60,198 nt of DNA from a phage, in NCBI GenBank assembly GCA_018175315.1, contig GCA_018175315.1_4769.1. One strand, given 5' to 3'. How positions within the stretch are numbered: the stretch's first letter is position 1; every line of letters begins with the position of its first letter. The position numbers were made by a program, and so were the translations under genes. The notes under the pieces are model-generated. The model was given only the letters and a program-made list of their open reading frames with translations, was not told the DNA's origin and searched no databases. This document shows, one piece after another, positions 4,409 to 60,198 of the stretch.

Positions 4409-4423
4409 ACTAGAGGATTTAAG

Positions 4424-6313: not shown

Positions 6314-6433
6314 TCTTACCGCGAAAACCGCACCGCTAGCGCATTGTTTAGGGTGCGGGAACCCAACTATACTACTAAAGCTTTTAAACCCAACAACCAG
6401 CGAATAACGCTGTTAAAACTGGAGAACAAAAGT

Positions 6434-6913: not shown

Positions 6914-6915
6914 AA

Positions 6916-7991: not shown

Positions 7992-7992
7992 T

Positions 7993-8652: not shown

Positions 8653-8653
8653 T

Positions 8654-9112
8654 ATGCCAAGGGTCTATACTAAAAAGCCGATGTCCGAAAGACTAAGCAA
8701 ATACGTTATAGACCCTTCTACTGGTTGCTGGAACTGGACTGGTAGTAAGGATAAAGACGGTTACGGTAGAATGATTAGTGGTTCCAAAGGTGAACGAATT
8801 TTTAGTTTTGCGCATCGCGAGAGCTATAAACTGTACAAAGGAGAAATTGGTTTACCTGATTCCGCTACAGGGTGCGTTCTGCATACATGTGATAATCCGT
8901 CTTGCATTAACCCAGATCATTTATATTTAGGAGATCAAAAACAAAACGGGTTGGATAAGAAAGTTAGAGGGAGGGCAAGGACACGTCCACGGTTTGGGAA
9001 AGATAACCCAATGTATCAAAAATATGGTGAACTGAATCCAATGTACGGGAAACATCATACAGAGGAAACCAAACGTAAAATTAGCGAAACTAAGAAAGCT
9101 AATTTTAAATAA
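8654..9112 (+). CDS. HNH homing endonuclease
   Basis: HNH_3-type pattern (GCWNWTGSKDKDGYGRM ... HRESYKLYKG ... CDNPSCINPDHLYLGDQKQN); inserted between folE and dpdA. Confidence 0.7.
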   Translation: MPRVYTKKPMSERLSKYVIDPSTGCWNWTGSKDKDGYGRMISGSKGERIFSFAHRESYKLYKGEIGLPDSATGCVLHTCDNPSCINPDHLYLGDQKQNGLDKKVRGRARTRPRFGKDNPMYQKYGELNPMYGKHHTEETKRKISETKKANFK

Positions 9113-19013: not shown

Positions 19014-19015
19014 AA

Positions 19016-19291
19016 TTACGCCCACTCCCTTAAAGGTTGCTCAAGAATAACACTGTGGTTACTGTACTGGGTAAAATCAAACGAGTCATCAATAACCCTT
19101 ACGTTCACATAATACCCTTCATTTTGAATATATGTTGGTTCGTCTGATAAACTTTCAACTTCTGTAAAGGTGTATCCTATTACATCAAGCATTATTTGGT
19201 TTTGCAAAGTTTCATTGCCTTCCCAATCAATGACCACAAGAAAATCTTCAAACGCCTTCTTGTCCTTAAATTTCATAGTTAAGTCTTTCAT
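19016..19291 (-). CDS. hypothetical protein between tail-fibre genes (possible fibre assembly factor)
   Basis: 91 aa with GGAG RBS; start overlaps upstream stop. Confidence 0.45.
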   Translation of the reverse strand: MKDLTMKFKDKKAFEDFLVVIDWEGNETLQNQIMLDVIGYTFTEVESLSDEPTYIQNEGYYVNVRVIDDSFDFTQYSNHSVILEQPLREWA

Positions 19292-21417: not shown

Positions 21418-21541
21418 TTTTACCTCTTGTTTCGCAGAGTTGATCAATTAATGGATGCACTATGGCATATAAATATGGTAAATTAAATTAGAATATAAAA
21501 CAATATTGTCTATCATCTTTAACCACATTGTTGGAGTAATT

Positions 21542-22507
21542 ATGCCAGAGGGTATTTATATAAACTACAATGACGGTAGACCTGCAATGCAAATAACATC
21601 AGGTTTACGGGCCTTGTCCTTTTGCGCTAAATTTGATCAGCGCTGTCAATCCGATCAAACGTTAGTGATTAATACCCCTCTCACTAACGGGTCTGAGATT
21701 TTTGTAATTCCAACAAGGCCAGTTGAAATTATTGAAGTTTACGATCAAGGTTTAGTTGTCGCATCACCTTTCTATATATCCTCTATTTCCAGGAACGGTA
21801 ATTCTGGAGTTGTCTTAAGGGGTGGTAATCCTTTTGGGTATACCGGAAAACTACCGCAATGGGCGGGTTCAATTATGGAGGTATTACCTGCCGCCAATTA
21901 TAATACAGGTCTATATGTATCTAACTCTACGGATTTTACAGCAATCTCTAATAATGCAAAGCTAATGACTTGTCAATACGCTGGTACGGTTACAGTCAAT
22001 GGCAGTCTGCAACTACCTGTATCCGGTATCCCGTTTGCAAGATGGAGCGATCCAAACGTTTCTGTTGGCTTTGATGGTTCTAACATTATAGTCCGCAACA
22101 TTGCGTATACGGGTCGAGACGACGTTGCTGGTAGCGTTACAATGGAGCTGGTAATCTTTAATAATACTCCACCGTCACCTGGCGACGGTATTACAATGAC
22201 AAACAATATTGGGCAAGTCACATTTTCTACAGTGAGAAAACCATTCTTATTCGACAGGACTTTAATTTTATCGGGAAGTAACCAAGACATAGGTAACAGG
22301 TTAATTCAGCTTGCTTTTTACGGTATGCGCAACGTCTATAATGGCGGGTATGACCATGTTCGTTATAATGGCGTTTATATGTATAATAATCAGGTAAGAG
22401 CTGAAAGAAATAAAGTGATTGGTAACTTCTATTCCCCTTCTTTAAGACCACCAGAAAGAAATATTATCATCCCTACTCCAGCTATCGCTATACCAAATAT
22501 GTATTAA
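21542..22507 (+). CDS. hypothetical protein encoded antisense to the tail module
   Basis: GGAG RBS 5 nt before ATG 21542; 321 aa rich in N/G/S/T/Y; AT-rich upstream region and hairpin terminator downstream; no large competing ORF on the minus strand. Confidence 0.55.
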   Translation: MPEGIYINYNDGRPAMQITSGLRALSFCAKFDQRCQSDQTLVINTPLTNGSEIFVIPTRPVEIIEVYDQGLVVASPFYISSISRNGNSGVVLRGGNPFGYTGKLPQWAGSIMEVLPAANYNTGLYVSNSTDFTAISNNAKLMTCQYAGTVTVNGSLQLPVSGIPFARWSDPNVSVGFDGSNIIVRNIAYTGRDDVAGSVTMELVIFNNTPPSPGDGITMTNNIGQVTFSTVRKPFLFDRTLILSGSNQDIGNRLIQLAFYGMRNVYNGGYDHVRYNGVYMYNNQVRAERNKVIGNFYSPSLRPPERNIIIPTPAIAIPNMY

Positions 22508-22508
22508 T

Positions 22509-22530
22509 AAACGGGGCATGTGCCCCGTTT
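22509..22530. terminator. bidirectional hairpin terminator
   Basis: Palindrome AAACGGGGCA-TG-TGCCCCGTTT between convergent genes. Confidence 0.5.
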
Positions 22531-22540
22531 AAATATTTCA

Positions 22541-25180
22541 TTACCATCGTCCCACTATGACAACACCACCACCTGATAGCGGAACACGAATACCGTTACT
22601 ATCAATTGTAATACCTCCATTTCCATTGAAACCAAATTGACCAGCGTTAGCAACAACGGTCCCTCTGACGGTCACGTTATTAAATACGCAATAACCGTCT
22701 TTTGTGATTGCCCAACCTTGATCGTTACCATTCCAGTTATTGGACTGGATAACATTACCAATCTTAGCGTTAGTAATCGATCCGTTTTCAATAAACGCTT
22801 CTCGCAAGAAACTTTGACCGTTTTTAATAGCGAATGCAAGCTGTGCTGCTCCTGCTACAGGATTATAAATAGCAAAGTTATCCGCGCTCACCATAAAGTA
22901 AGACTGGAATTGTCCTCCGCTACCTTCAATACCTAACTGCATACCTGCAACATATTTGTTACCATTATTGTCTATTTGAACCTTTTGTCCCCATTGAGCA
23001 GAAAGTTTACCATTAAGATCTGCTAGTGCTTGCGATTGCTCTTGCACGGTAACAACAACATCACCCACACTACTCTGAACCGATTCAATTTTTGTAGCTT
23101 GTCCTTCAACTACTTTGGACAATTCCGTTACACCGTCATCAACCTTTTGCACAGTCTCCATGAGGTTTTTGAAAGTTTCAGTTTCTTGAAACTCTTTATC
23201 CATAATTTCTATGATCTGTGCAGTTTCTGCCCATACACGAGCTTCAACTTCCACAAACGCGGACGACCCAAAGGCATTGATAGTTCTTACATACCAGTAA
23301 TAAGTGTGGTCATTGAGTAAGTTATTTTTCTGCCATATAGTTCCCATACCTTCACGGGTCGCATCGCGCTCAACAACATCTGTATTAACAGACGGCAGTT
23401 TTGTTTCACCAGACGTCCAGAAATCAAATTGTGTGCTAACACTAGTGAGCTCTGCAATCTTTGGTATAAGAGTTAAAGAAAAATAACCGTTCTGTATTTC
23501 GACAGATGAAGGCGGCGGTGGGGCTTGAATATTAAACTCCAGATAAGCTTCCGGTGATATTGCGCCACTGTGCGATACAGCTTGAACGTGCGCAGTATAT
23601 GCCCCACGCAGCAACCCAGTAACACGAACGCTTTGGCCAGGGACTTGTGCGGTCCAAATAGTAACGCCTCCCTGTCGCACAGCTACGCGGTTGTATGCAA
23701 CTTGCCCCATGTTGGTCCAGGATAATACCCCCTGTACCACATCGCTAATCTGCAATATCTGGTATTGGAGATTTTGAGGTTGAGCAACACCACCACTTGG
23801 CAAGTCTACAAGATCCGGTCGGTCCATAGGCTTACCGATCGCATCGTCCCACATTTCCAGGAAATCTTGACGTAGTGTAAGGTTAACACCACCTTTAGGG
23901 TTAAAAGACCATTTAGTAACGCGCATTTCAACATTCTTCATGCCAATCTGCGTAATGGTGACTTTTACATACATTCCTGGACGAAATTTATAACCCTTCA
24001 TGTTACAAGGAATTTCAATTGTGCGGCCAACACGTTTACGACGTAGAATAATATTAGACAAACGTTGGGCTTGATATTCGCTTGTTACAAATCGGAAATC
24101 CATGTCTTGCGTTATTTCACCGCCGTCCTTTTCCACCCATTCCTTAACCACAACTGGAGGAAAGTCCGCTTCAACATAGTTTTGCTTTGGATCAATAAAT
24201 GTCCCTGTGATGGTGTTGGTGCGCTCCTTATAAGAAGTTTCTGGAACAATTTTAATATCCCCAGCAATACAACTTTCGTCCAGCGTCATTGTTGCTGGAC
24301 CGTAATATGCGCCAACCAGAAGACCGTGTTTACCCGCTACATACGTTAGCTCGCCGCCACAAGCTTGCAACATAGCATCCAGAATTTTGGATGGGGCTTC
24401 ATCTACTTCAAATTCACCGTTGATTTTATAACGGCGCTCTGTAGAACCATCAGCGTTATTGACGTATTCATCACAGATGTTAGCCGCTTCTTTGAATTGG
24501 TCCCAGTTAATATCTTCATCTTTGCGCTTTAAATACGTGCGGAAGTAATCAAGTATCACCAACGCTGCATTATCGCTGAATATGGTATAACCAGAACGAG
24601 GATCATATACACGGCGACCTCTTTTAAGAAGCTTAATGTTTGGCAAACCAGACGGGAATTTTTCCGCATTAAATTTAAAGCTAATACGAAGCCATGCAAT
24701 CCCTTTCCCGATCATATCCTCTTTCCAGGAAGGGCAATTGCTTAACATGAATGGATCTACAGTCTGACGGTCGTTATGGAATTCCCAAGTGACATACTGT
24801 TCGAAAGTCTGTACAAGGTCATCCCCAAGCCAAATATCACCAATTCCCTCCAATGGATGTGAAGCTACAACAAGAGCCATATGCAGGAGTTCGTCTTCGT
24901 CCTGATCTCCAGGCTGCTCCTCGGCAAACGTCATAACACCGGAAGCAACCGTTGTACCATACACTACTGTTCGAGATGCTGCGGCTGCTCGTAAAACCTG
25001 TTTACGCTCTTGTTGACCTTTATAAGCATTAAAGTTCATATTAGGTGTCTTAGTTAAAAGAGCACCCGCCGCAGTTGCAGCCATACCAATAGCCAAAGCT
25101 ACGCCAGTAGCAATCCACCCCGCCGCAGCGGCAGCGGAAGCACCTAAAGCTATTGCTGCTCCAATTATTGCTGGTGGCAT
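22541..25180 (-). CDS. lambda J-like tail tip / central fibre protein (host specificity)
   Basis: GGAGGG RBS before ATG 25180; FN3-like segment YYWYVRTINAFGSSAFVEV resembles lambda J YYFYIRSVNTVGKSAFVEA; first about 47 aa are an Ala/Gly-rich hydrophobic segment. Confidence 0.7.
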   Translation of the reverse strand: MPPAIIGAAIALGASAAAAAGWIATGVALAIGMAATAAGALLTKTPNMNFNAYKGQQERKQVLRAAAASRTVVYGTTVASGVMTFAEEQPGDQDEDELLHMALVVASHPLEGIGDIWLGDDLVQTFEQYVTWEFHNDRQTVDPFMLSNCPSWKEDMIGKGIAWLRISFKFNAEKFPSGLPNIKLLKRGRRVYDPRSGYTIFSDNAALVILDYFRTYLKRKDEDINWDQFKEAANICDEYVNNADGSTERRYKINGEFEVDEAPSKILDAMLQACGGELTYVAGKHGLLVGAYYGPATMTLDESCIAGDIKIVPETSYKERTNTITGTFIDPKQNYVEADFPPVVVKEWVEKDGGEITQDMDFRFVTSEYQAQRLSNIILRRKRVGRTIEIPCNMKGYKFRPGMYVKVTITQIGMKNVEMRVTKWSFNPKGGVNLTLRQDFLEMWDDAIGKPMDRPDLVDLPSGGVAQPQNLQYQILQISDVVQGVLSWTNMGQVAYNRVAVRQGGVTIWTAQVPGQSVRVTGLLRGAYTAHVQAVSHSGAISPEAYLEFNIQAPPPPSSVEIQNGYFSLTLIPKIAELTSVSTQFDFWTSGETKLPSVNTDVVERDATREGMGTIWQKNNLLNDHTYYWYVRTINAFGSSAFVEVEARVWAETAQIIEIMDKEFQETETFKNLMETVQKVDDGVTELSKVVEGQATKIESVQSSVGDVVVTVQEQSQALADLNGKLSAQWGQKVQIDNNGNKYVAGMQLGIEGSGGQFQSYFMVSADNFAIYNPVAGAAQLAFAIKNGQSFLREAFIENGSITNAKIGNVIQSNNWNGNDQGWAITKDGYCVFNNVTVRGTVVANAGQFGFNGNGGITIDSNGIRVPLSGGGVVIVGRW

Positions 25181-26760: not shown

Positions 26761-29700
26761 TTACCCCATTGCAGTTCTACGAATTGTTCCTCGGGATGCA
26801 AAGTCTGTAAGAACTTTATTATATCCCTGCTCCGCACCATCACGAGCCGCTTGCTGCATGGCTTGCGTGAGTGCAGCATCGCCATTTCCTTGCACCGTGA
26901 TATACTGGACAATGCTAACACCACCGGACATATTCACGCCACCTTGTTGTGAAGCTTGACTATCCAGGAAGCGATTTAACTTGTCATTAGACGGAGCATT
27001 GAGTACACGTTCACCCTTATCCAGCAACCATGTACCTTCACGAGGAACGTTATCGATACCGTCGTGAGCCATACCAGCAATTGCTAAGCCCCCCACAGTA
27101 GCGGCGGACGCATAACCCATAGCTTTCACTATACCAGCCATAGCTGCACCCATTGTAGCACCGCCTTGCTGTGTACCCCATGCAAGCGCTGCGGATGCTG
27201 CCGTTTCCGTGTTGGCAAGGATTGACGGGATTTGCATTGCTTTCTGTGCGGCAAACATTGCCTTATAAATAAAGTTCTGTTTACTAACACCTTCTTCCAG
27301 CCCTGACAAAATAATACCCAATGATTCCTGAGAAAAGGATATCATTCGGTTCATAAGAACTTTATCCAGGTTTTCCCTTTCCATGCTTGCTTTTTTCAGC
27401 ACTTGGGTTTTAGCATCTTCGTAAAGCTGATAGTAAGCTAAATCATCCGCTCGCTGTTTAGCAGTAAGCTCAGCAATCTTCGTATTTTGCTCGTACGCGA
27501 TTTTTTCATAGTCCGTCATACCTTCATCTAACAGACCCTGAGCAAACTTACGATTCTTCTTACGCTCGTCCAGTTTCTTTTGAGCTTCTTCTGCATCGTA
27601 AATTGCAGCGGCAAGACTAACGACTTCTGCTTTTTCCGCAGCCGTTGCGGACGCATTTAACTTATTGAGTGCCACAGCTTGCGCTTTAGCTTTAGCGTTT
27701 TCCTTAACCCCTGTGGTTACTTCGTTAAGCTTGTTGCGTAAATCGTCAATAACTTTGGCGTTCTGTTGTTCTGCTTTAATACCGTCTTTTGTCGCTTTAG
27801 TTCGGTTCCTCTCCGCTTCCTCGAGATCGTAGTTTTTGCCAAGAGCTTGCGCTAAATCTTGAGCATATTTAACAAGCTCTTTAGCGGATTCGCTTGTTGC
27901 CTCTGAGCTAACGTCCTGACCCATAGCTACTTTGCGAATAAGACTTCCGTATGTATCCGCATCCTTGCCCAGCGTCTGATACAGTCCACTAAGGATTGCA
28001 GCTTGGCGAGCATTGCCAGCACCCTTAACCGTGTTAACATCAATCTCACGGTTGACATCACCTAGCTGACCTTTAAAACGGTCAAGGACTTTCTCGTCAA
28101 TAAGTGGACCGGATTTGATGTTAAGAACGGCCTTCATATCAGCAGCAAGCTGACGAGCTAACGGAATTATCTTCTCGATAGCAGGGCTTGTCATTTCTAA
28201 GACATTGTTGTAACGGCGTTGAGCTTCTTCAGCACGTTCAGCAGCTAGCTTGACGTTATCCGTAGCAATCTGTAAGTTCTTTTCCGCACTAGCAGTATCT
28301 CGACCGGATGCAGCTCGACGTTTTAATTGTGCTTCGTAGAACTTTTGCGTTTCTGTTGCAGATTTTAGAGCGGTCTGTTCCCGCTTCATTTGCTCTTCAA
28401 GTTCAGGAAGTATTGCGCGAGCTTTGACAGCGTTAGCTGCCAGCTGAGCTTCCGTCATCTGCATTAGTTTTTCGCGTACACTATCAACACTATCTGCAAA
28501 CTGATTGTTTTCCGCACGACCAGCTTCCAGCGACGCTTTATAGGAGTAAATTGCACCCGCTGCCAGCATTGCTACACCAACAGGACCACCAATTAACCCC
28601 ATAGCACCGCGCAGCACGCTCATTGCTGTAGCGGCTCGGCTTGCGGCTGGTACGGTTGCATTGAGCGCAGCATTGAGCGCTTGCCGCGCTTGTACGTCCG
28701 CCATAATTGCCGCAGAATGCGCACGGGTAGCGTTAATAAGAGCAAGACGTGCGCCTGCTTCCGCTGCCGTACCTTTAGCAACTGCTAATGCACCGCGTGC
28801 CACCTGCAACGATGCAAGCGAAGCAGCACGATCCGCAGCCGCTTTCTGTGCGGTAACGCCAATAGAGCTTTGCATCACCGCCGTAGTTGCCGCCGTTTGT
28901 GCAGCTTCCATCCGTGATGCTTTTGCAGCAGCTATAGACGCTTTAGTCTTAGCAAGCATTGCCGTAATGATACGGGCGGTAATCACTGTGGCTAAAGCTG
29001 AACCAACCGTTACAACCGTTCCTAAGTTTTCGGATAATGCAACAAACGTCTGTCCCAATGCAGCAACCGCACCTTGAGTCTTTTGGGATTCACCCATAAA
29101 CTTAGTCAGGTTGTTTGTTGCAACTGTCCATTGCCGGTTGAACGTTGGCATAGTGCGGCTAAATTCTTTATCAATTGTATCCGCAGCACCAGACAACGAT
29201 TTGATAACCACATCTGATGTTAACTTTCCGCTGTACGCCAGCTCACGCAATTGTCCAATGGTAACGCCTAACGAATCGGACATGATTTGAGTTAAGCGCG
29301 GTGCCTGTTCTGCAACAGATCGGAATTCATCCCCGCGCAAAACACCGGATGCCATCGCTTGCGAAAACTGAATAAGAGCAGCACTTGCTTCATGGGATGT
29401 TGCACCGGAAACAATCATTGCTTTGTTAATTGTTTCCGTGATACGTCCAAGCTCCATACCAGTCATACCAGTATTCTTCATCGCACGCTGGAGACGGGAG
29501 TACAGAGTTGCAGTCGCTTCCAAGCTTGTACGTGACCGCTGGGCAATATCAAACACGCGTTGCTGCGCATCCGCAACGGTTTCATTACCCGTACGAGCCA
29601 GTTCAAGTTTGTTGGTGAGGATAGTCCAGGAGTCCGATAGCGAAATAACACGGCTAATAGTGTCAACGCTAATCATTCCTACAATTGCAGCATCCAAACG

Positions 29701-36730: not shown

Positions 36731-38227
36731 CTATTCTTTATCGGAAGCGTCGTCTTCCTTAGGATCTTTGTTTACTTGCTGCTCTGCGTTTAAATCAGCC
36801 TTAGCATCATCGGGCAGAGGCCACTTCTTAAGCTCTTCCTCAAGAATTGCCATTTCTTCTTCAAAGCTCAATGTGGTTAAACCCTGATCCACAAGCCAGC
36901 CATGAATAGACTGCAAGCTGATCGGAGCCTTAAGGTTGCGTGCAGTAATAATTTGAACAAAGTCCTGACCGTTAAACATGCTCTTGGTAAATTCAAGATT
37001 AGGCTTAACCACAACTTTCTCTGGATCAGCACCCATCCATTTAGCGCAAACCTTCAGCAAGTTTTCCAAACCTGCCGCACCAGTATACGCAATTCGAATC
37101 AGGCTAGCTGTACGCGCAGCAATACGCGTTTTCATAGCTTCGCCTGATTCCTGCGTGCTCTTGGTGTTGTTTACCATTTGCCCGGCTTTAATCTGGGCTT
37201 CTTGCTTATCCGCTGCTAGTGCAAGACGTTGCTCGGACAAACCGTCACCGCTAACGCCTACATATTTAGCGTCACCCCCAATAGCAACGTTAATGACCGC
37301 TCCAGGACCGATGCGCTGAGGGGCTTTATCTCCATTCTCCCCCGTGCCACCAACAACAACTAATGTGTCCTGACCCTGCATATGCAGGCTCTGACGGTAA
37401 TCAGCGTCACTTCGGTACATGCTTAGGCAGATGTTAGCTAGCCCCAACAATGGAGGCGCTTCCGGTGCTGGGGTGATATCTGTTGTATTAACAAACTGGA
37501 AAGGTATTTCGTCCAGTTTGTTACCTTTATAATAAGGAGCAATCATTTGCCCTTCATCATAATTGGTATTGTTGATAAATAAATGCTGGGAGTAGACCGC
37601 CCCACCTGCAACTTCATCTGTGTCCATCGGACCTAATTGCAAGACACGATAACGCTTCTCTTCTTTCCAGTCAAACTGATTGACACGTACAGGCCCGCTT
37701 TCATCCAGAACAACCATGTTCAAGTTGATATTGCCTAATTCATCTTTACCATCATCCCAGTTGATAATGGATAAAGCATCATAAACGCTAATATACGGTC
37801 TGTTATTTACATCCTCACCTTTTGGCAAGTCCAGCAGCAGACCCAAACGTCCATTTTTTAACTGCATTTCGTTGATGCGACGTAGCAGAGCAATAATGTC
37901 TTCACCATCCGCAGTACACAGCTCCCGCATGTACTCCATTTCAGGAGGAAGCTGGATTGTAGGCGGCTTCTGGTGCAACAGACCTAAATTATTTGTGACA
38001 GCACTTGAATAATCGTCAGGGAAGTTAGCACGCAGACGATAAGCGAGCCAACGTTGAAAGCCTAAATCATTAGGATTATTCATCCCATCAATAATCATGG
38101 AAGCTAAAGGTGGTAGATATTTAACACCTTCTTCCTTAATTTTATCTTCACCCTCATAGCAGTCGTTGCACTTAACCCATGCATCCTTCCACTTGTCATA
38201 TAGCGGGTGAGTTGCATCAATACCCAT
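36731..38227 (-). CDS. portal protein
   Basis: 498 aa immediately downstream of terminase large subunit. Confidence 0.7.
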   Translation of the reverse strand: MGIDATHPLYDKWKDAWVKCNDCYEGEDKIKEEGVKYLPPLASMIIDGMNNPNDLGFQRWLAYRLRANFPDDYSSAVTNNLGLLHQKPPTIQLPPEMEYMRELCTADGEDIIALLRRINEMQLKNGRLGLLLDLPKGEDVNNRPYISVYDALSIINWDDGKDELGNINLNMVVLDESGPVRVNQFDWKEEKRYRVLQLGPMDTDEVAGGAVYSQHLFINNTNYDEGQMIAPYYKGNKLDEIPFQFVNTTDITPAPEAPPLLGLANICLSMYRSDADYRQSLHMQGQDTLVVVGGTGENGDKAPQRIGPGAVINVAIGGDAKYVGVSGDGLSEQRLALAADKQEAQIKAGQMVNNTKSTQESGEAMKTRIAARTASLIRIAYTGAAGLENLLKVCAKWMGADPEKVVVKPNLEFTKSMFNGQDFVQIITARNLKAPISLQSIHGWLVDQGLTTLSFEEEMAILEEELKKWPLPDDAKADLNAEQQVNKDPKEDDASDKE

Positions 38228-38238
38228 ATACCCTCCAG

Positions 38239-39798
38239 TTAAATACCGATAGTTTTACCGACACCTGTATAAACAGCTTGATCCAGAACCATATAACGTA
38301 CTTCATCGCCCATATGGTCTTCACATTCCGTATCAACGTCGTCCTGATCTACTTCATCGCGCGGAAGACTTGGAACAAGTTCAAAGAAATAATTGCAGTT
38401 ATCAAAAACATACATTGCTGGATTTTCACGTGGTCCCGGCAAAGGTTTACCGTTTGCATCTTCCCGCAATGCAGCTTTAAGAAACTCACGCATTTTCTGC
38501 CATCCGCGTTTACGCGACCCAGCAGATTTATCACTTCTCTTCCAATGGATACCGTTATACAGCTTGCCGTTAAGACGAATTTTCTTCGCCATTGTTGCAG
38601 CGGTGGAGTTATTGTTCTCCAGATCCCAAATGGAGTTATCCGCAGGACCAGGAACTACACGATCGTGTATACCCCAGGCTAATTCCCGCTCCAGTATACC
38701 GCTTGCAATTTCTGAGTCCAGCAAATGTAGACCTTCGTTTGTTTTACCGTTGGTCCCATACCATTCGTTAATCCTAAACAGGTCACCTCGGACCGTGGAG
38801 AATGTAGTGCCATCTTCACGCACAACATCCGAACCATCACTAATAGCCCACCAACCGACAGAGAACGGTTTTGAAGAACCCCAGTCGAAAGAACGTGTAA
38901 TCTTCCAACTCGCTGGAATCGGGAATGGTCGTACTTTGTGAACAGTGCTACGCCACAGGTCATCGAACATACCACCGGATGTAATATCCCAGCTCCCGCC
39001 CAACCATGCAGCACGCTTGTTCGGGTCTGTGATAGACATAAGTTCTGCAATATATTTTGGACTTAGGTTTTTGTTTTCACGGTACGAACCAAAGATATGG
39101 CATTGCGTCGTAACCACATCTTCGTCTTTCTGCGTCCTCGGGTTAAACACTCGCGTAGTCTTCCTGAGTATTTTACCCATCGGTGCAGCGTCAATGAAGC
39201 GTTTCTTAACCCAGTTATGCCCCGCACCAAACGGGTTACTGGTAGCAAACACTTCAAGAGGGATATCCGGTAAATATGTGACCGTACCATCTGGATTAAT
39301 AATTGGGTTATCTTCTGGTAAGAAAGATGAACGGTTACAGGACATCATAGCTTCAAACAAACGCCCGTCCGGATATTTTGTTAATTCGTTCCATCCGATA
39401 AATGGGTATTCGTGACCGTGATAAGACCAGTAATCCTTTTCTTTACAAGCAACGCGGAACAGTAGCTCTTCACCAGTAGGCCAAACCCATTTATAATCAG
39501 ACTTAGAGCTAAGGAATTTAGCCCCGTCTTTAAATTCAGGAAACCAACGCTGGGATTTAGTTACAAGGTCATCAAGGTTTTTATATTCACGGTCGAATAT
39601 AATACCCTTCCAAAATTTACCGTACCCTACACCAACATTCTTACGGAAACGCATAAGCTGGCAGTCCGTTTTTCCAGGACCGCGAGTTCCATGGTATAAG
39701 ATAATATCAGCGGGGCAGGATAGAGCGAGTGTCTGTGAACCTGGATGTGGTTTCCAGACGACTCGCGGCATGTTATCAGGTTGTCGGTTTAGCTCCAT
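38239..39798 (-). CDS. terL: terminase large subunit
   Basis: Walker A HGTRGPGKT near N-terminus; 519 aa; C-terminal nuclease-type acidic residues. Confidence 0.85.
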   Translation of the reverse strand: MELNRQPDNMPRVVWKPHPGSQTLALSCPADIILYHGTRGPGKTDCQLMRFRKNVGVGYGKFWKGIIFDREYKNLDDLVTKSQRWFPEFKDGAKFLSSKSDYKWVWPTGEELLFRVACKEKDYWSYHGHEYPFIGWNELTKYPDGRLFEAMMSCNRSSFLPEDNPIINPDGTVTYLPDIPLEVFATSNPFGAGHNWVKKRFIDAAPMGKILRKTTRVFNPRTQKDEDVVTTQCHIFGSYRENKNLSPKYIAELMSITDPNKRAAWLGGSWDITSGGMFDDLWRSTVHKVRPFPIPASWKITRSFDWGSSKPFSVGWWAISDGSDVVREDGTTFSTVRGDLFRINEWYGTNGKTNEGLHLLDSEIASGILERELAWGIHDRVVPGPADNSIWDLENNNSTAATMAKKIRLNGKLYNGIHWKRSDKSAGSRKRGWQKMREFLKAALREDANGKPLPGPRENPAMYVFDNCNYFFELVPSLPRDEVDQDDVDTECEDHMGDEVRYMVLDQAVYTGVGKTIGI

Positions 39799-40333
39799 CT
39801 TCAGTCTCTTTAACTAGTCGTTGTTGAGACTCGGATGCAGTTTTTTCCCATTCGTCAATATTTGCTACAGCAGGGACTATCATTACGCCGCCTCTGTTAG
39901 TAACATCAATCTTAGCCTTCTTGGGAGCATCCAAATCATAAATTTGTGCAAGCTTGCCCAATGCGGCGACTCTAGCAGCTTGAGAAGATCCCGGTCCTGT
40001 ATAATGAGCTTCACGTTTTAATGCTTCAATGATATGCTGACGCTCAAGGTCTGCTTCAATGTTAGCTTGCTCAGAAGTACGTTGAACACGGGATCTTTCA
40101 ATCTCCTTGAGCTTCCATCGAACATAACAGTCCGTGGCAAAGCGTTGGCCCAGCTCCTGTGCAAACATAGCATTGAACCCGCATCTCATGCAAGCGTTAG
40201 TCCAATTGTAGTCGAACATGTACTCAGCAACAACTTTGTCACGTATTGCCATCTCTTCAGCGGACAAGCTATTTGCATACTGGATGTAATTCGTCCAGTC
40301 ACGATCATATTGCTCTTGACTTGCCCCGTTCAT
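39776..40333 (-). CDS. terS: terminase small subunit (putative)
   Basis: 185 aa directly upstream of and overlapping terL. Confidence 0.5.
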   Translation of the reverse strand: MNGASQEQYDRDWTNYIQYANSLSAEEMAIRDKVVAEYMFDYNWTNACMRCGFNAMFAQELGQRFATDCYVRWKLKEIERSRVQRTSEQANIEADLERQHIIEALKREAHYTGPGSSQAARVAALGKLAQIYDLDAPKKAKIDVTNRGGVMIVPAVANIDEWEKTASESQQRLVKETEDGAKPTT

Positions 40334-45096: not shown

Positions 45097-45230
45097 GGTA
45101 GGTGGGGTCATGGATGTAGGTGGATAGGCTATGTGACAGGTGAGATTTAGGCGTGGACTTACTATCAGGATGGATAAGGCGCCCTCGGGTGATTATTAGT
45201 ACCCTGATGATCCTAGGTGGGGTCTATGAG
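45097..45230. repeat. direct repeats TAGGTGGGGTC(A/T)ATG (2 copies) plus variant GTAGGTGGATAGG in non-coding leader
   Basis: Copies read at 45099-45109 and 45214-45224; variant at 45116-45128. Confidence 0.45.
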
Positions 45231-45632
45231 TCGGCTCATTGGACCGGTCTGTGACTGTAAGATCTGTTATTCTTCCAAACGAATCTATTTCATTCGTCAT
45301 TATACTGATGTATATCGTGAGCTGCCTATATACATGGCGTGCATATAGCAGAGCAGGCCGTACGCGTTAACGTACAGCCTGTGAGCATTGAAATTAGCGC
45401 CGCTTTGTGGGGTACAGCGTGCTCGTTGTGTGTTGGTAATGCATTACCATTACCTTTGTGCATTAGCTCGCTGTGGTGCTGCTGTGTGCGTTATCCTTGC
45501 GAGCGCATGTCCGCATATATGCTTTTACCGCGCATCATGGCACTATGCCAGCCATGAACTGCATATTCTGCGCGCATTGCTGCAATTAATAACGCGTGCT
45601 GTGCGCGTGTAAGCGTGTATTTGCGTGACATA

Positions 45633-45818
45633 TTAGTACACCTCTACCAGTTTAACGATGGCGCTAAAATCGGCGATTCCAAGTTGCATCTCTGTACGGA
45701 CGAAATCTTCTGCCACGATACGACTGGGAGCTGTAACGTCTCCGATATATTCGCCATAGTACATAACTTTAAATGTTCTGTTGCTATTATTTACAGACTT
45801 CACAATGTTCGTAGACAT
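45633..45818 (-). CDS. hypothetical protein
   Basis: 61 aa with GAGGTG RBS. Confidence 0.5.
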   Translation of the reverse strand: MSTNIVKSVNNSNRTFKVMYYGEYIGDVTAPSRIVAEDFVRTEMQLGIADFSAIVKLVEVY

Positions 45819-45886
45819 AATACACCTCGTTATAATTAGTTAGCTTATTAATGAGCACTGTATTAATGCTCATTGTATAAGTTAGC

Positions 45887-46090
45887 TTAGTTAAATTCGA
45901 AGACAGCAATAGTTTTCATTGTATCAGAACTATAGATGTAGATATCTCCGCGGTCTTCTACTACTGCACGCCATTCCTCTTCACCTTTAATAATGCAACG
46001 AGTTTTAAGATCCATTTTATACTCTGCGCCTTCTACGAAACCGAAATTATTGTTTGCAACCATTACGCAGATAACGTTACGAATAGACAT
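45887..46090 (-). CDS. hypothetical protein
   Basis: 67 aa with AAAGGGG RBS. Confidence 0.5.
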   Translation of the reverse strand: MSIRNVICVMVANNNFGFVEGAEYKMDLKTRCIIKGEEEWRAVVEDRGDIYIYSSDTMKTIAVFEFN

Positions 46091-46296
46091 GATGTAAACC
46101 CCTTTAAGTTAATTTGTAGTACCCTTGCGGTATGTGTATATAGTAGTGCTAGACTGATCATATGTCTACACCTTTTTGCATCTTTTTATAAAAATATTTT
46201 GGCAGCTTTATATGTATGTGCACGCCCGCGCGAATACTCCAGATAATGTGATGTTAGTTAGGCCATTAGTGCTAAACATGCAGGGCAAGCGTATTT

Positions 46297-46324
46297 TTCA
46301 CTAGATGCAAAACAATTCTAAAAT
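46297..46324 (+). promoter_or_regulatory. promoter candidate TTCACT-N16-TAAAAT in divergent intergenic region
   Basis: Hexamers read by eye; upstream of plus-strand gene block. Confidence 0.25.
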
Positions 46325-46416
46325 AGCACTTTTGGCCTATTCAATATCACGATGCATCGCTATTATGTACCCATAGCAACACGATACTACTTCTTAACCA
46401 CACTTGGAGGCGCGTT

Positions 46417-46584
46417 ATGTCCAGCTCATACTTCACTATCATGTACTTCGGTCGCAGTTATTGCATCGACAACAAATACCGCCACCTTACCCGCGCTCAG
46501 CTGGAGTGGGCAATCAGCTTATATAAGCAGGAAGAATTTTATTTCCTTGAAGTCGCACTGGATTATGTAAGCGAAAATAGTTGA
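46417..46584 (+). CDS. small hypothetical protein (55 aa)
   Basis: GGAGG RBS 6 nt before ATG; below the 60-aa cutoff of the ORF track. Confidence 0.4.
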   Translation: MSSSYFTIMYFGRSYCIDNKYRHLTRAQLEWAISLYKQEEFYFLEVALDYVSENS

Positions 46585-46652
46585 TTTATATCTTGCCTAG
46601 TTGATCTGGCTGGGCAATAATAAGTCAACTTAAACAAAAAGAGGATTACATT

Positions 46653-46901
46653 ATGGCTACTTCTATCATCACCAAATTTTTGGCACCAACTAACACCAAA
46701 GGCGCACGCATTGTAGTTAAAGGTTTTGGCAAGCGCAAAGTCTATAGCTGGGTCTATGCTATCGACGTAACGCTTAACCATAAAGCGGCAGTACAGCAGT
46801 TCCTCAAAGCGTTTAACGCCGAAAACGACACCGACTATAGCATCGTTGCTTTCGCAAGCATGGATATCGCAACCGTCGATTACGTAGCAATCGTCGCATA
46901 A
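46653..46901 (+). CDS. hypothetical protein
   Basis: 82 aa with AAGAGGA RBS. Confidence 0.55.
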   Translation: MATSIITKFLAPTNTKGARIVVKGFGKRKVYSWVYAIDVTLNHKAAVQQFLKAFNAENDTDYSIVAFASMDIATVDYVAIVA

Positions 46902-54672: not shown

Positions 54673-55329
54673 ATGACTGACGTATTAAATAACATGCACA
54701 CTATTTCTATAACTAATTCTAGCGTAACTGCTGCATCCTTTGCACCAACTCTTCTCGGGGTGAAACGCTTAACGGACACCGCAATCCTGCCATCGTTTGC
54801 CAGTGCGGGGGCAGCTTGCTTTGACCTGCACGCGGACCTTAAAAGTGAAGAAGGTTGCGAACAAATCATTTTCTCTTACGAGCACATATTCCGCACAGGG
54901 TTAGCGTTTGATATTCCTGAAGGTTACGCGCTTATGGTGTATTCCCGTAGCGGACACGGATTCAAAAACGACGTGCGTCTGGCAAACTGCGTGGGCGTCA
55001 TTGATAGCGACTACACTGGGGAACTTAAGGTTAAGATTACTATTGATAACGATGGTAGTTTTACTGTCAATCATGGTGATCGCATTGCGCAAGCTATGCT
55101 TATTAAGCTGCCCAGCGTGCAACTGGTAGAAGTGGACGAGCTTAAGAGCACTGAGCGCGGTGCCAATGGCTTTGGGTCCACTGGCACGGGCGAACTTAAA
55201 AAGGGTAACGGCAAAGGGTGGAAACTTGGAGACGAGCAGTCCAACAACTTTGTACCTGCCACCAATGTGGTTACATCTGAGGAAGAAGTGTCTTTGCATC
55301 CAATTATGACTTCCCGCTATTTGAAATAG
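54673..55329 (+). CDS. dut: dUTP diphosphatase (dUTPase)
   Basis: Canonical dUTPase motifs: AGAACFDL, RSGHGFKNDVRLANCVGVIDSDYTGEL, GDRIAQ, RGANGFGSTG. Confidence 0.85.
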   Translation: MTDVLNNMHTISITNSSVTAASFAPTLLGVKRLTDTAILPSFASAGAACFDLHADLKSEEGCEQIIFSYEHIFRTGLAFDIPEGYALMVYSRSGHGFKNDVRLANCVGVIDSDYTGELKVKITIDNDGSFTVNHGDRIAQAMLIKLPSVQLVEVDELKSTERGANGFGSTGTGELKKGNGKGWKLGDEQSNNFVPATNVVTSEEEVSLHPIMTSRYLK

Positions 55330-55336
55330 GCTATTT

Positions 55337-55507
55337 ATGGGTAAACGGAAGAAAAAGTTATCAAAGCAAGTAATATCTGACATGGAACCCTATATACCTT
55401 GTCCGATACCTGAAGCGTATAAGCCTTCACCATTAATGGAGGATGCTGAATGGAGGAAGGTTGCTAGATTACTAATCCGTTTAAAAAGATTAATTGATAC
55501 AAATTGA
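55337..55507 (+). CDS. candidate small basic protein (56 aa)
   Basis: ORF read by hand (MGKRKKKLSKQ...); weak RBS; below ORF-track cutoff. Confidence 0.25.
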   Translation: MGKRKKKLSKQVISDMEPYIPCPIPEAYKPSPLMEDAEWRKVARLLIRLKRLIDTN

Positions 55508-55510
55508 GTC

Positions 55511-55538
55511 TTGCCTAAGCACATGGATGTGCTACTAT
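55511..55538 (+). promoter_or_regulatory. promoter candidate TTGCCT-N16-TACTAT with embedded palindrome GCACATGGATGTGC
   Basis: Hexamers at 55511-55516 and 55533-55538; perfect 6-2-6 inverted repeat 55519-55532 in the spacer. Confidence 0.3.
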
Positions 55539-55570
55539 ACATACATCGAAACACAACAGAGGACAGAAAA

Positions 55571-55981
55571 ATGTTCGACGCAGATAAAGCAGTACAAGCA
55601 ACAGAAGCAGATGTAATCGAGTGGTATAAAACTAAAGCGGAATTGCAGAAACTGCAAGATCGTGAGCGAGCACTCCGTGATAAGATTATTAAGTCCTATT
55701 TCCCTGCTCCATCGGAAGGGACTAATAAAGTTGAAATTACTGGCGGGGTTATGAAAATGACTCACAAGATTGATCGCAAGATTGATCTTCCAAGCCTTAA
55801 CGGAATCCTGGGCGATCTGATTAAAGTTGGTGTTAACGTTGATCAGCTTGTGGAAAATAAACCTGTGTTGAAAGTTGCGGCTTGGCGTAAACTTACAGCG
55901 GAGCAAGCCGCAGTCTTTAACCAGTGCGTTGAATCGAAAGTTGGTTCCGCGTCTCTGGAAATTGTGCCGAATAAAGCCTAA
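55571..55981 (+). CDS. hypothetical protein
   Basis: AGAGGA RBS before ATG 55571; 136 aa. Confidence 0.5.
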   Translation: MFDADKAVQATEADVIEWYKTKAELQKLQDRERALRDKIIKSYFPAPSEGTNKVEITGGVMKMTHKIDRKIDLPSLNGILGDLIKVGVNVDQLVENKPVLKVAAWRKLTAEQAAVFNQCVESKVGSASLEIVPNKA

Positions 55982-56022
55982 CCACATTAACGGGCGGTCG
56001 ATCCGCCCAAGAGGAAACTAAA

Positions 56023-56814
56023 ATGCGTAAAGAATTTCAGAAAGCTTATCATGCTCTGTTAAAAGGCGTTGTAACTGTCAAAGTTAAGTTTGAAGCAGGT
56101 GGTCGCCTTTATACCTACCGTGCTCTGGAAAGTGACGAATTGCAGCCGGGCGATACAGTTGTTATTCAATATAACGGCAAGTTCTTTACTACGGAAGTAG
56201 TAGAAGTAGATCAGTATCCGGACTTCAGCAAGGATGTTGAATATAAATGGATTGTGTGCAAAGTAGACGAAGAGCGCTATGCTCACTTCCTGGAACAGGA
56301 ACACATGTTCGAACAACAGATGTTGGCTTTGTCCGCAAACAAAGAAGCAGAAGCAACCAAGAAAGAACTGATCGAGTTGTACGGTGAAGAAAACGTCGGT
56401 TATTTGGCAGGCATTGCCCAGGGCAAAGTGACGGTTCCAACATTGAATGATGTTATTGAAACTATGCTACACAACTTTGCGGATGGTGCAGATCTTAACG
56501 GTAGTGTTGTTGAGTTTAAAACCGGACCTTATAATGGTGAATCTGTACAACGTCAGAAAGATCTGTATGTACAGGTGCTTGGTCGCGGTTTGCGCAAGAT
56601 GGAAGGTCCGCGTGTGGACTGGGAAAGTCGTTACAATAAACACATTGCAAACATGCATACTTTGAACGGTTTCACGTGGCGTGATTTTATGGCTCCTGGC
56701 GCAAATAAGGAGAATAAAGAAGACGTAACCGCAGCTAAAATCTTGTTTGATCGTTTCAAGCGTAAGCAGTATCCGATTGAGCAATATATCGAAGAGTTCA
56801 AAAACAAACTGTAA
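56023..56814 (+). CDS. hypothetical protein
   Basis: 263-aa ORF between dUTPase and RNase H. Confidence 0.5.
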   Translation: MRKEFQKAYHALLKGVVTVKVKFEAGGRLYTYRALESDELQPGDTVVIQYNGKFFTTEVVEVDQYPDFSKDVEYKWIVCKVDEERYAHFLEQEHMFEQQMLALSANKEAEATKKELIELYGEENVGYLAGIAQGKVTVPTLNDVIETMLHNFADGADLNGSVVEFKTGPYNGESVQRQKDLYVQVLGRGLRKMEGPRVDWESRYNKHIANMHTLNGFTWRDFMAPGANKENKEDVTAAKILFDRFKRKQYPIEQYIEEFKNKL

Positions 56815-56857
56815 TAAACTAAAGGGGTCAGTAGACACCTTTTTAACAGGAGTCATT

Positions 56858-57511
56858 ATGCGAGTAACAATTATATCCGATGCAAGTTTTTGTCCAAATA
56901 CAAAAGCCGCGGGATACGGTGGCTGGGTAGTGTGTAACCGTGGAAATAATGCTAACGGTGGACCGTTACGTGGAGCTCCTGATAATAATGCAGCTGAAAC
57001 AATGGCAATCTGTAATGTTATTTGGGAGGGAATGAAGGCTAAATTAATCCATCCAGGCGATCATTTAATTGTGCAAACAGATTGTTCAACAGCTATTAAA
57101 GTGTATAAAGAAGCAAGCTGGAAAAGTGAACAGGAAGGTGTAGCTTTCAAATGGTTGAACGATCAATTGCGTAAATATAATCTAACTATTGAGTTCCGCC
57201 ACGTTAAAGGTCATACAAGTACGCAAGACCAACGTAGTAAAGCACAAAGATTCTGCGATGAACGTGCGCGTTCTGCTATGCGATTGGAAAGAAGCAAAAT
57301 CCGTTTGAAGGAATGCAAAGAGCTTATTTCCGAAGCAAAGAAAAAGGAAAATAGACCTAAAAAGGGTAGCGGGCATTTACGTCGCAATACTCGTATGAAA
57401 GAGAAAGCTCAAAAAGCTGCAACCGTTTGGCGGCGTTCTATGGGTAAAGGTATGGGCGTAAATTCAATTACAACTCGCTCAGACTGGTCAGACTTTGACT
57501 ATGAAATGTAA
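56858..57511 (+). CDS. ribonuclease H (RNase H1-like)
   Basis: AGGAG RBS before ATG 56858; RNase H-like Asp/Glu/His pattern (ISDASF...AETMAI...VQTDCSTAI...KGHTSTQDQ); basic C-terminal tail. Confidence 0.7.
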   Translation: MRVTIISDASFCPNTKAAGYGGWVVCNRGNNANGGPLRGAPDNNAAETMAICNVIWEGMKAKLIHPGDHLIVQTDCSTAIKVYKEASWKSEQEGVAFKWLNDQLRKYNLTIEFRHVKGHTSTQDQRSKAQRFCDERARSAMRLERSKIRLKECKELISEAKKKENRPKKGSGHLRRNTRMKEKAQKAATVWRRSMGKGMGVNSITTRSDWSDFDYEM

Positions 57512-57520
57512 GGAGGGTAT

Positions 57521-58435
57521 ATGGCATTCAAGCCACATTTAGCGACTGACGCGGTTGAAGAAAAGATTAAGTTTCCGTGCTGTATACTGCCTAAAATCGA
57601 CGGTGTACGCGGTTTAAATCCAGACGGGCAGATAGTAGGGCGAAGCTTAAAGCTGTTTAAAAACCGCCATACAAGCGCAATTTTCAGCGGTCCCCAGTAC
57701 ATGGGCTATGACGGTGAACTTGCAGCAGGGTTGGAAACAGATCCAGACCTGTGTCGTAAAACAACCAGTGCGGTAAATACAATTGAAGGTAAACCGTTCC
57801 TGAAATGGCACATCTTTGATCTGTGCGCTGAGAGTGTTGCAGAGCTGGGCTATGAAGCCCGCTACAACATGATGAAAGATTTTATAACCACACAGCACGC
57901 GAAAGGTGAATTGCTCGACTTGCAAGTTGTGCCAATGTATGTGGTTAAGTCTTTAGAAGAGTTGCTCTACTGGGAAAACATCTGGCTTGATATGGGTTAT
58001 GAAGGTATTATTATCCGTGATCCTGACAAGCCTTATAAACATGGGCGCGGCACAGTTCGTGAAGGTGGATATCTTCGTATTAAACGCTTTATTCAGGAAG
58101 ACGCTATTGTCCTTGATATTATTGAGGGCGAAACTAACCTTAATGAAGCTACTGTTAACGAGCTGGGCAGGACTACACGATCTTCGCATCAGGAAAATAA
58201 AGTTCCTAACGGTATGATCGGGACGTTGGTTTGTAAAGACATTAAGACGGGCAATACAATCAACGTTAGTCCTGGTAAACTAACGCAAGAGGATAAGATT
58301 TATTATTGGAATAACCCTGACAAAATTAAAGGTCGGACTATTTCATATAAACACTTCCCTCATGGCGTGAAAGATAAACCGCGTTTTGCAAACTTTATGC
58401 ATTTCCGCGATGAAAGTGATCAGGCTTTAGATTAA
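57521..58435 (+). CDS. ATP-dependent DNA ligase
   Basis: Adenylation motif I KIDGVRG (KxDG); 304 aa like small phage ligases; AAGGAGGG RBS. Confidence 0.8.
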   Translation: MAFKPHLATDAVEEKIKFPCCILPKIDGVRGLNPDGQIVGRSLKLFKNRHTSAIFSGPQYMGYDGELAAGLETDPDLCRKTTSAVNTIEGKPFLKWHIFDLCAESVAELGYEARYNMMKDFITTQHAKGELLDLQVVPMYVVKSLEELLYWENIWLDMGYEGIIIRDPDKPYKHGRGTVREGGYLRIKRFIQEDAIVLDIIEGETNLNEATVNELGRTTRSSHQENKVPNGMIGTLVCKDIKTGNTINVSPGKLTQEDKIYYWNNPDKIKGRTISYKHFPHGVKDKPRFANFMHFRDESDQALD

Positions 58436-58500
58436 AAAGTAATTGAGGGTTCAAAGTATATTACGTTACAATGAGCGCGAACTTAAAAGAGAGGCGTTAA

Positions 58501-59229
58501 ATGGCCATTGAAATTAAAATGTCTTCGCAAGTTGTGCAGGACACAGGTGTTAAAATTCTGGTTTACGGTGAAGCGGGTATGGGTAAAACCAGCCTTGTAG
58601 CCACATTGCCTAAACCAATTTTAATCAGCGCAGAATCCGGTCTGTTGTCTATTGCAGCGGAAAACCTTAACCGTGTTTATGGTAACATGGGTTTGCCCAT
58701 CGTTTACGATATTCCGGTAATTGAAGTGAAATGTCTGGAAGACGTTGAAGCGGCTTATCAGTGGTGCGTAACTCCAGCTAACCAGCAGTATTTCGATTCT
58801 ATTGCGCTTGACAGCTTGAGCGAAATTGCTGAACAATGTTTAAACAACGCGAAAAAGGGAACGAAAGATCCTCGTCAAGCTTATGGTACTTTGCTTGAAA
58901 AGATGCAAGATCTGATCCGTAAATTTCGCGATATTCCTGGCAAACATGTTTATATGTCTGCTAAAATGGGTAAAGACAAAGATGAAGTCTCCGGTGTTAC
59001 CGCGTATGCTCCATCTATGCCTGGATCCAAATTGGGGCAAATGCTCCCTTACTTCTTCGACGAAGTATTTCGTCTGAATGTAAATAAGGATCAGCAAGGT
59101 AACTCGTATCGTTACTTGCAAACTCAACCGGACTTTAATACAATCGCTAAGGATCGTTCGGGACGTTTAGATGCGGTTGAAGTCCCACACTTAGGTTCTG
59201 TTATCAACAAAATGAAAGGTATCAACTAA
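58501..59229 (+). CDS. Sak4-like RecA-fold ATPase (recombination/annealing)
   Basis: Walker A YGEAGMGKTS about 20 aa from N-terminus; 242 aa; followed by SSB-like gene. Confidence 0.55.
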   Translation: MAIEIKMSSQVVQDTGVKILVYGEAGMGKTSLVATLPKPILISAESGLLSIAAENLNRVYGNMGLPIVYDIPVIEVKCLEDVEAAYQWCVTPANQQYFDSIALDSLSEIAEQCLNNAKKGTKDPRQAYGTLLEKMQDLIRKFRDIPGKHVYMSAKMGKDKDEVSGVTAYAPSMPGSKLGQMLPYFFDEVFRLNVNKDQQGNSYRYLQTQPDFNTIAKDRSGRLDAVEVPHLGSVINKMKGIN

Positions 59230-60116
59230 TGACTATGCCAACTAATTTCCACTTTGACGCGAGCAGCTATCAAGCACCTTCTTACGGCGCATTGCCGAAA
59301 GGTTGGTATAAAGCAGTAATTGAAGCATCTGAATTTAAACCGACCAAAAATGGCGGTATGGCGATCCAGGTAACGTTTAGCATCATTGACGGTTTTGCTA
59401 AAGGTCGTAAAATCTTCGCTCGTTACAACGTTATCAACGACAACGAAGACACTGTGCGTATCGCATACGAGCAACTGGGCGCGCTTTCCCATGCGGTTGG
59501 CGTAATTCGCTGGGATACTCCTGCTCAACTGCATAACATTCCGCTGAACCTGCGTCTGAAAGTTCGTTCTCAGGAAGGTTATGAAGACAGCAACGAGCCT
59601 AACGGTTATGCTAACATCAACGATCCGGTTAAGTATGCAGAAAAAGAAGCAGGTACTCCAGCAATGGGTGCTCAAGCGGCAGTAGCTAACCCGTTCGGTG
59701 CAGGTGCGCCAGCACAGCAGCCAGCTTTCCCGGGCGCAGCACCTCAGCAACCAGCAGCTAACCCGTTTGCACAGCAACAGCAAGCGCCTGTACAGCAGCA
59801 AGCTCCGGCGCAGCAGCCGCAAGTTCAGCAGCCTGTGCAGCAGCAACCAGCACCGCAGCAGGGCGCCGCAGCACAACCGTGGCAGAATGCAGCACCGCAA
59901 CCGTGGGATAACCCTGCTCAAAATGCAGCACCGCAGCAGCCAGTTCAACAGGCTCCGGTAGAGCAACCAGCAGCACCGCAACAAGCTGTTCAGCAGCCGT
60001 GGGCGCAGCAGGTAGCACAGCCTGGTCAGGCAGCAGCGCCAGCGCAGCAAGCGCAACCACAGCAGCAAGCTGAACCGCATCCAGCACAATCCGCAGTTCC
60101 GCCGTGGCAGCAGTAA
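59229..60116 (+). CDS. putative ssDNA-binding protein with Q/P/A-rich low-complexity C-terminal half
   Basis: Globular N-terminal approx 150 aa then approx 140 aa of PQQ/AQQ repeats; TAATG coupling with upstream ATPase; function inferred from context. Confidence 0.4.
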   Translation: MTMPTNFHFDASSYQAPSYGALPKGWYKAVIEASEFKPTKNGGMAIQVTFSIIDGFAKGRKIFARYNVINDNEDTVRIAYEQLGALSHAVGVIRWDTPAQLHNIPLNLRLKVRSQEGYEDSNEPNGYANINDPVKYAEKEAGTPAMGAQAAVANPFGAGAPAQQPAFPGAAPQQPAANPFAQQQQAPVQQQAPAQQPQVQQPVQQQPAPQQGAAAQPWQNAAPQPWDNPAQNAAPQQPVQQAPVEQPAAPQQAVQQPWAQQVAQPGQAAAPAQQAQPQQQAEPHPAQSAVPPWQQ

Positions 60117-60141
60117 GATAACCCTCCTTTGTAGCATTCAT

Positions 60142-60168
60142 AAGCCGTCGAAAGACGGCTTATTTTCT
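60142..60168 (+). terminator. rho-independent terminator
   Basis: AAGCCGTC-GAAA-GACGGCTT followed by ATTTTCT. Confidence 0.6.
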
Positions 60169-60198
60169 AAGGTACTCCAATGGCTATTTACATTGCAG

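Follow-up and report, generated by a model that had tools for sequence, protein, structure and literature searches.

A complete Seuratvirus genome, very probably linearised by software inside an intact Cas4-like exonuclease gene

The phage DNA considered here, a stretch of 60,198 nucleotides referred to below as the window, is, as judged from assemblies and homology, the complete genome of a Seuratvirus (Queuovirinae), assembled as a circle. The best joint explanation of its form, which is very probably correct, is that a complete Seuratvirus circle was linearised by software at its minimal k-mer, inside an intact exonuclease gene. A short-read assembler would have closed the genome into a circle and then written the circle out as a line, the rotation and the strand being chosen so that the sequence starts with the minimal k-mer (AAAAAACACTT...). 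This k-mer would merely happen to fall 19 nt inside the gene of a Cas4-like PD-(D/E)XK exonuclease.

Positions 60180–60198 (ATGGCTATTTACATTGCAG, read from the sequence), the 19 bases with which the window ends, join with positions 1–890 into an uninterrupted reading frame of 909 nt, a length divisible by three. Its translation gives a product of 302 aa and ends with TAA at 888–890. ATG 60180 is the earliest start codon of the frame, because an in-frame stop upstream (60168–60170) closes it. The features at the junction are the following.

60180–60198, plus strand: exonuclease gene start; the homologous base is the start of CAjan gp49, and the gene is intact in a Logan contig (L004, positions 5090–5998, 302 aa)
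1–890, plus strand: remainder of the exonuclease gene, from the last two bases of codon 7 to TAA at 888–890
60169–60173, plus strand: RBS-like motif AAGGT (Shine-Dalgarno-like), 6 nt before ATG 60180, read from the sequence
60140–60168, plus strand: terminator-like hairpin ATAAGCCGTC-GAAA-GACGGCTTAT followed by TTTCT, between the DUF669 gene and the exonuclease gene

The initial annotation had read ATG 60180 and the 19 terminal bases in frame with positions 1–890 as a 302-aa protein. This reading is borne out: the exact joined protein is present in the public protein collection (P0121), on a 60,228-bp contig, and a Logan contig spans the join. Residues A6 and T9, which flank the join, are invariant in an alignment of 54 homologues. 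The gene had also been said to begin just past a terminator at 60142–60168, and these coordinates are essentially right. The hairpin (60140–60163), followed by TTTCT, lies between the stop of the preceding gene (60114–60116) and the exonuclease start. It forms a perfect 10-bp stem upon folding, with a centroid energy of -15.9 kcal/mol and z = -2.7 against shuffled sequences. The hairpin has no entry in the consensus terminator scan, probably because its T-tract falls slightly below the threshold of the scan; the features listed for the matching part of the SA80RD record (OL960575.1) include a 'terminator'.

Closure of the circle could be followed in relatives. In a whole-genome comparison the window is collinear round the whole circle with the 59,670-bp genome of CAjan (NC_028776.1; Seuratvirus, Queuovirinae): the gene order is the same, and 50,108 of the 60,198 bases (83%) align in blocks of 71–97% identity. 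Window positions 60198 and 1 correspond to CAjan 38931 and 38930, with neither gap nor overlap. For both ends of the window, matches at 88–95% identity occur in about 35 genomes of Seuratvirus (Queuovirinae). The bases matching 60198 and 1 are adjacent in about 30 genomes, that is, in every listed record with both matches (besides CAjan 38931/38930, for instance, SLUR76 12962/12963, Seurat 35615/35614 and phiG7 1820/1821). Because the window is collinear with CAjan and its ends are adjacent in the relatives, no sequence is missing and none is duplicated, and the window is one turn of a genome of about 60 kb.

The same conclusion is reached from an independent assembly. The intact exonuclease gene lies in the interior of the 60,228-bp contig that carries P0121, namely Logan contig ERR3500706_98 (run ERR3500706), which was reached via the neighbouring helicase protein. 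The part of it designated L004 equals window 55091–60198 followed by 1–8869; the agreement is 100% over these 13,977 bp, which run through the junction. The last base of the contig corresponds to window 15403 and the first, by coordinate arithmetic, to 15374; its length is that of the window plus 30 (60,198 + 30). A de Bruijn assembler with k = 31 emits a cycle with a 30-base overlap, and from the lengths we infer that ERR3500706_98 is the full circle plus 30 nt, i.e., k-1 for k = 31. The proposal that the ends of the window are contiguous and the genome complete thus stands on CAjan, on some 30 relatives and on the Logan contig running through the junction.

Membership in the genus is indicated by synteny, by nucleotide similarity and by the preQ0 gene cluster (the criterion being QueC/D/E, FolE and DpdA), which is common to CAjan and the phage of the window; genes for QueC, PTPS, GTP cyclohydrolase I and a radical SAM protein are present in L004. 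Other closest relatives are Seurat, the SLUR phages and the Seuratviruses of the BASEL Bas series; the window itself is absent from the phage collection, where local identity reaches about 95% at best. The CAjan counterpart of the split gene, gp49 ('Cas4-domain exonuclease', 38041–38949), is also 909 nt long and has the homologous ATG start. As in the window, it follows the Sak4 and DUF669 genes and precedes the helicase gene. The CAjan record is opened at terS, whereas the window is opened inside the exonuclease gene.

The position of this cut is defined by the following feature.

1–21, plus strand: AAAAAACACTTCAAGCAATCA, smallest k-mer of the circular sequence and linearisation point (k-mer ranking)

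Under the base order A<C<T<G the first k-mer of the window has rank 0 of 120,396 (the circle, both strands); under A<C<G<T it has rank 1, i.e., it is the second smallest. The ranking is identical for k = 11, 21 and 31 and is independent of k for k >= 11. Since the 24 base orders were tried after the fact, the chance of about 1 in 10^5 becomes p of about 2e-4 after Bonferroni correction. The cut also recurs in an independent E. coli assembly (NCBI GCA_050331895.1), where contig ABYXZA010000026.1 (60,291 bp) begins with AAAAAACACTTCAAGC, its first base being the same as that of the window. This contig shares the first 16 bases of the window and comes from another Seuratvirus, with 95.2% identity over 3.9 kb (L005, 1–3890). 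Because the contig is opened there, the deposited exonuclease is a 'partial' protein of 295 aa with the N-terminus KTLQAIN. In CAjan the homologous k-mer is only the third smallest, so that a minimal-k-mer rule would open CAjan elsewhere; this fits the fact that not all relatives are cut here, their records being opened at many different places or, by convention, at terS.

The cut points to a deterministic software rotation of the circular contig and not to a physical DNA end. The program responsible may be SKESA. It has a function, RotateCircularToMinKmer, with the 2-bit base order A, C, T, G, which makes it a candidate for the rotation of the window, and it is presumably the assembler behind the E. 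coli assemblies of NCBI pathogen surveillance. A literature search yielded nothing usable on an assembler that rotates circular contigs to the minimal k-mer. The earlier view of a circle opened arbitrarily inside a gene therefore needs amendment: the opening is inside a gene, but it is not arbitrary, as the start is the smallest k-mer and the cut recurs in ABYXZA010000026.1. Of the two origins offered there, circular permutation with headful packaging or an assembly breakpoint, the minimal k-mer and the recurrent cut favour the second, as an artefact of assembly and linearisation.

Like the window, the record of slur01 (LN881725.1/NC_028831.1) is apparently opened within the exonuclease gene. 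Window 60198 has its counterpart at position 411 of that record, on the minus strand, so the cut lies about 410 nt further into the gene and appears to be a different, arbitrary linearisation. With 61,235 bp, slur01 is longer than most listed relatives, and one of its ends may be duplicated.

The phage, the gene and the circular-assembly behaviour are already described for Seuratvirus, and the split gene changes nothing in Seuratvirus biology; its value is practical only. A start at the smallest k-mer offers a quick test, independent of reads, for a contig linearised by software. The record of the window is best treated as circular, and the gene is best annotated as one 302-aa product rather than as a 295-aa 'partial' one. 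The ends of the window are uninformative on the real DNA ends of the phage and on its packaging.

For closure during assembly, reads would have to bridge every position of the circle. Such reads could come from terminally redundant, permuted virion DNA (headful packaging) or from replicating circles or concatemers in an infected E. coli culture. A related explanation, in which the circle was real in the sample, the phage persisting in an E. coli isolate as an episome that replicates in circular or concatemeric form (carrier state), is improbable, though it survives better than the others; it is compatible with the cut by software and competes solely over the source of the junction-spanning reads. 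The helicase of the window is deposited as an Escherichia coli protein (the exact sequence is HBC8487984.1, 'TPA: DEAD/DEAH box helicase [Escherichia coli]'), and at least four NCBI entries labelled E. coli hold proteins of this cluster on contigs of Seuratvirus size (57–60 kb), as the episome would have it. However, the collinear CAjan has no annotated integrase or partition genes, the genus is described as lytic (PMC4342423), circular contigs were also obtained by sequencing purified virions of relatives (PMC8594841, PMC9022592), and contamination or an infected culture would explain the entries equally well. That Seuratviruses, regarded as strictly lytic, are maintained in E. coli isolates, either as replicating episomes or in a carrier state, is a shade less probable still; if true, it could explain the recurrence of complete Seuratvirus contigs of 57–60 kb in assemblies of 'Escherichia coli' isolates, among them the assembly from which the window seems to derive.

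Complete Seuratvirus contigs of 57–60 kb in assemblies labelled E. coli are represented by HBC8487984.1, HAG6100120.1, WP_234740029.1 and EOZ7767734.1. They could stem from contamination, from an infected culture or from a carrier state.

Software linearisation also has to be weighed against an ordinary assembly break, caused by a drop in coverage, a repeat or a homopolymer, in which the contig would be linear and incomplete and its ends would only seem to abut. Arbitrary ends are common in draft contigs, and a run of six adenines adjoins the junction. Nevertheless, 32 A6/T6 runs in the window are unbroken, no base is missing or duplicated at the join by comparison with CAjan and about 30 other genomes, and the ends abut exactly by comparison with the Logan contig. 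A random break would neither hit the minimal k-mer exactly nor recur in another assembly, and this explanation is very unlikely.

Where a packaging start may lie was considered by comparison with published relatives. The features concerned are the following.

45112–46351, no strand assigned: gene-poor divergent region between the late (minus) and early (plus) units, syntenic with the gap of phage 9g (ORF map)
39776–40333, minus strand: small terminase gene (PHROG 5334)
38239–39798, minus strand: large terminase gene (Pfam Terminase_6N, PHROG 2)

In phage 9g a single strong hot spot of read starts was found at 28,243, in a gap of about 600 bp between divergent early and late operons (PMC4276943). 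In the 9g record the gap spans 27770–28374, and position 28,243 falls within it. The start of the 9g RefSeq record differs from the published left end; 28,243 was used as a position of the record and is still intergenic. By homology, the flanks of the gap map to window 46414–46850 and to 43267 downwards. The candidate pac site or physical end of the phage of the window is, by analogy with 9g, probably at about 45.1–46.35 kb, some 14 kb from the window ends. Several promoter-like matches occur in 45112–46351, yet no more than in shuffled sequences. The junction is flanked by positive GC skew on both sides; the extremes of cumulative skew lie far off, at 14,750 and 49,237.

For Seurat, TerL was judged to be of the pac-headful type, and terS was made the start of the record 'for annotation purposes' (PMC4342423). 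The assembly of OddieOddie closed into a circle (PMC9022592), and the BASEL phages gave circular contigs, which were linearised at terS (PMC8594841). Opening at the start of the small terminase gene is thus a stated convention for the Seurat and BASEL records (PMC4342423, PMC8594841); the ends of the CAjan record (the first base of terS) correspond to window 40333/40334. Headful packaging of the phage of the window is suggested by analogy with published relatives only (PMC4342423, PMC9022592, bioRxiv 10.64898/2026.05.19.726188).

That the window boundaries are true physical ends, i.e., fixed termini (a terminal repeat, if any, having collapsed) that lie by chance inside the exonuclease gene, is scarcely credible. 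Conserved termini could also explain why the assemblies of two different Seuratviruses, made independently, share their end point. However, the window opens with the smallest k-mer of the circle, a purely lexical feature that would arise by chance about once in 10^5, the Logan contig is continuous through the junction, the hot spot of 9g (a sister genus) in the gap between early and late genes corresponds to about 45–46 kb of the window, the Seurat TerL was judged pac-headful (PMC4342423), and the splitting of a conserved gene 19 nt past its start codon would be odd.

Restored across the junction, the exonuclease gene takes its place in a group of recombination genes.

58501–59229, plus strand: Sak4-like ATPase/single-strand annealing protein, 242 aa (PHROG 124, 1.7e-59; annotation of CAjan gp51)
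59229–60116, plus strand: DUF669/SSB-like protein, 295 aa (Pfam DUF669, 3.8e-14; PHROG 13350 and 6015, 'single strand DNA binding protein')
893–2869, plus strand: SF2 (ResIII/DEAD) helicase (Pfam), directly 3' of the exonuclease gene

PF13479 (AAA_24) is found on the identical Sak4-like gene in L004, and the DUF669/SSB-like protein has a C-terminal tail rich in Q, A and P. The intact exonuclease probably serves as the nuclease partner in a module with the Sak4 annealase, the DUF669/SSB-like protein and the SF2 helicase. Its likely role would be the 5'-3' resection of double-strand ends, feeding Sak4-mediated annealing. An exonuclease paired with a Sak4-like recombinase has been proposed to form a recombination system conserved among phages (PMC3483164), and the nuclease of one relative is annotated 'BcepGomrgp43', an exonuclease named in that paper. 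As in Pseudomonas phage PA73 (ORF032 and an exonuclease), Burkholderia phage KL1 and BcepGomr (gp43/gp45), the genes of the Sak4-like ATPase and the exonuclease are neighbours in the window. In contrast to the PA73, KL1 and BcepGomr pairs, a DUF669/SSB-like gene stands between them here.

An antisense ORF of 303 aa (59226–60137, minus strand) nearly mirrors the DUF669/SSB-like gene (59229–60116, plus strand). Most likely it arises because the codons for the Q/A/P-rich tail of that gene are rich in GCA/CAG. The exact DUF669 protein was reported absent from the protein collection, although it is called on the Logan contig.

The joined protein matches PHROG 1990, 'Cas4-domain exonuclease' (2e-116), and more weakly PHROG 1706 and 434 (one CRISPR-associated, one RecE-like). 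Searches at E <= 10 returned no Pfam and no NCBIfam family for it, Cas_Cas4, PDDEXK_1 and YqaJ included. Sequence searches of the PDB, whether with the protein by itself or with a profile of 41 sequences, gave chance hits only (such as ankyrin designs and eS27). Homologues of the joined protein number 4,898; the best 120 of these are 295–327 aa long with query coverage of at least 91%, and none of these 120 carries a precomputed Pfam domain. The invariant columns of the 54-homologue alignment define the following codons, all on the plus strand.

156–158, plus strand: C59
363–365, plus strand: D128
417–419, plus strand: E146
423–425, plus strand: K148
498–500, plus strand: Q173
510–512, plus strand: Y177
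696–725, plus strand: C239, C242 and C248
753–851, plus strand: second Cys4 set, C258, C261, C274 and C290

D128, E146, K148, Q173 and Y177 (D, ExK, QxxxY) were assigned as catalytic motifs by pattern. The invariant cysteines C59, C239, C242 and C248 have the arrangement C...C-x2-C-x5-C, which we take to be the spacing of the Cas4/AddB iron-sulfur cluster.

The structure used in Foldseek was an AlphaFold2 model of the cluster representative P0001, which is 97% identical to the joined protein (pLDDT 93.6, pTM 0.90). The top match among solved structures was Cas4 SSO0001 (PDB 4ic1; E 6.5e-6, probability 1.00, TM 0.41/0.56), followed by LHK-Exo, lambda exonuclease and human EXO5. Among viral models the matches were PD-(D/E)XK/Cas4 proteins with TM up to 0.83. 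Against solved Cas4, lambda exonuclease and RecB-type nucleases the fold matches, but with TM of only 0.41–0.56. The phage protein is about 100 residues longer than the matched chains (202–206) and, unlike Cas4 SSO0001, has an extra invariant C-terminal Cys4 module. In contrast to CRISPR Cas4, its gene is located in a recombination module and not in a CRISPR locus: a CRISPR-cas locus was not found around it, the neighbours being the genes of Sak4, DUF669, the SF2 helicase, a ligase and RNase H. The modelled fold and the active-site motifs thus make it fair to describe the exonuclease as Cas4-like, and not as a CRISPR Cas4. The label 'Cas4-like nuclease' given by the initial annotation can be kept in this sense, by virtue of the SSO0001 match and the invariant motifs, with the reservation that the protein has no Pfam or NCBIfam match and is not CRISPR-associated.

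The second invariant Cys4 set (C258-x2-C261...C274...C290) follows the Cas4-type cysteines and forms a small three-stranded module in the model. The family of 4,898 homologues in which this second module is found is without Pfam or NCBIfam coverage.

Two further regions set the window apart from CAjan. Unshared with it are the tail-fibre region (17.3–22.8 kb) and several small blocks of the early region. The tail-fibre region (17253–22759, minus strand) is 86% covered, by phage VogelGryff only, and pieces of it are 78–84% identical to the much larger, unrelated coliphages BUCT632, IME178 and vB_EcoM_WFC; from these similarities the region looks as if a host-recognition module had been exchanged. 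A gene of 152 aa (8654–9112, plus strand), situated downstream of the gene for GTP cyclohydrolase I, has a NUMOD3 match (homing-endonuclease-like), and the block that holds it is missing from CAjan (window 8609–9102 unaligned).
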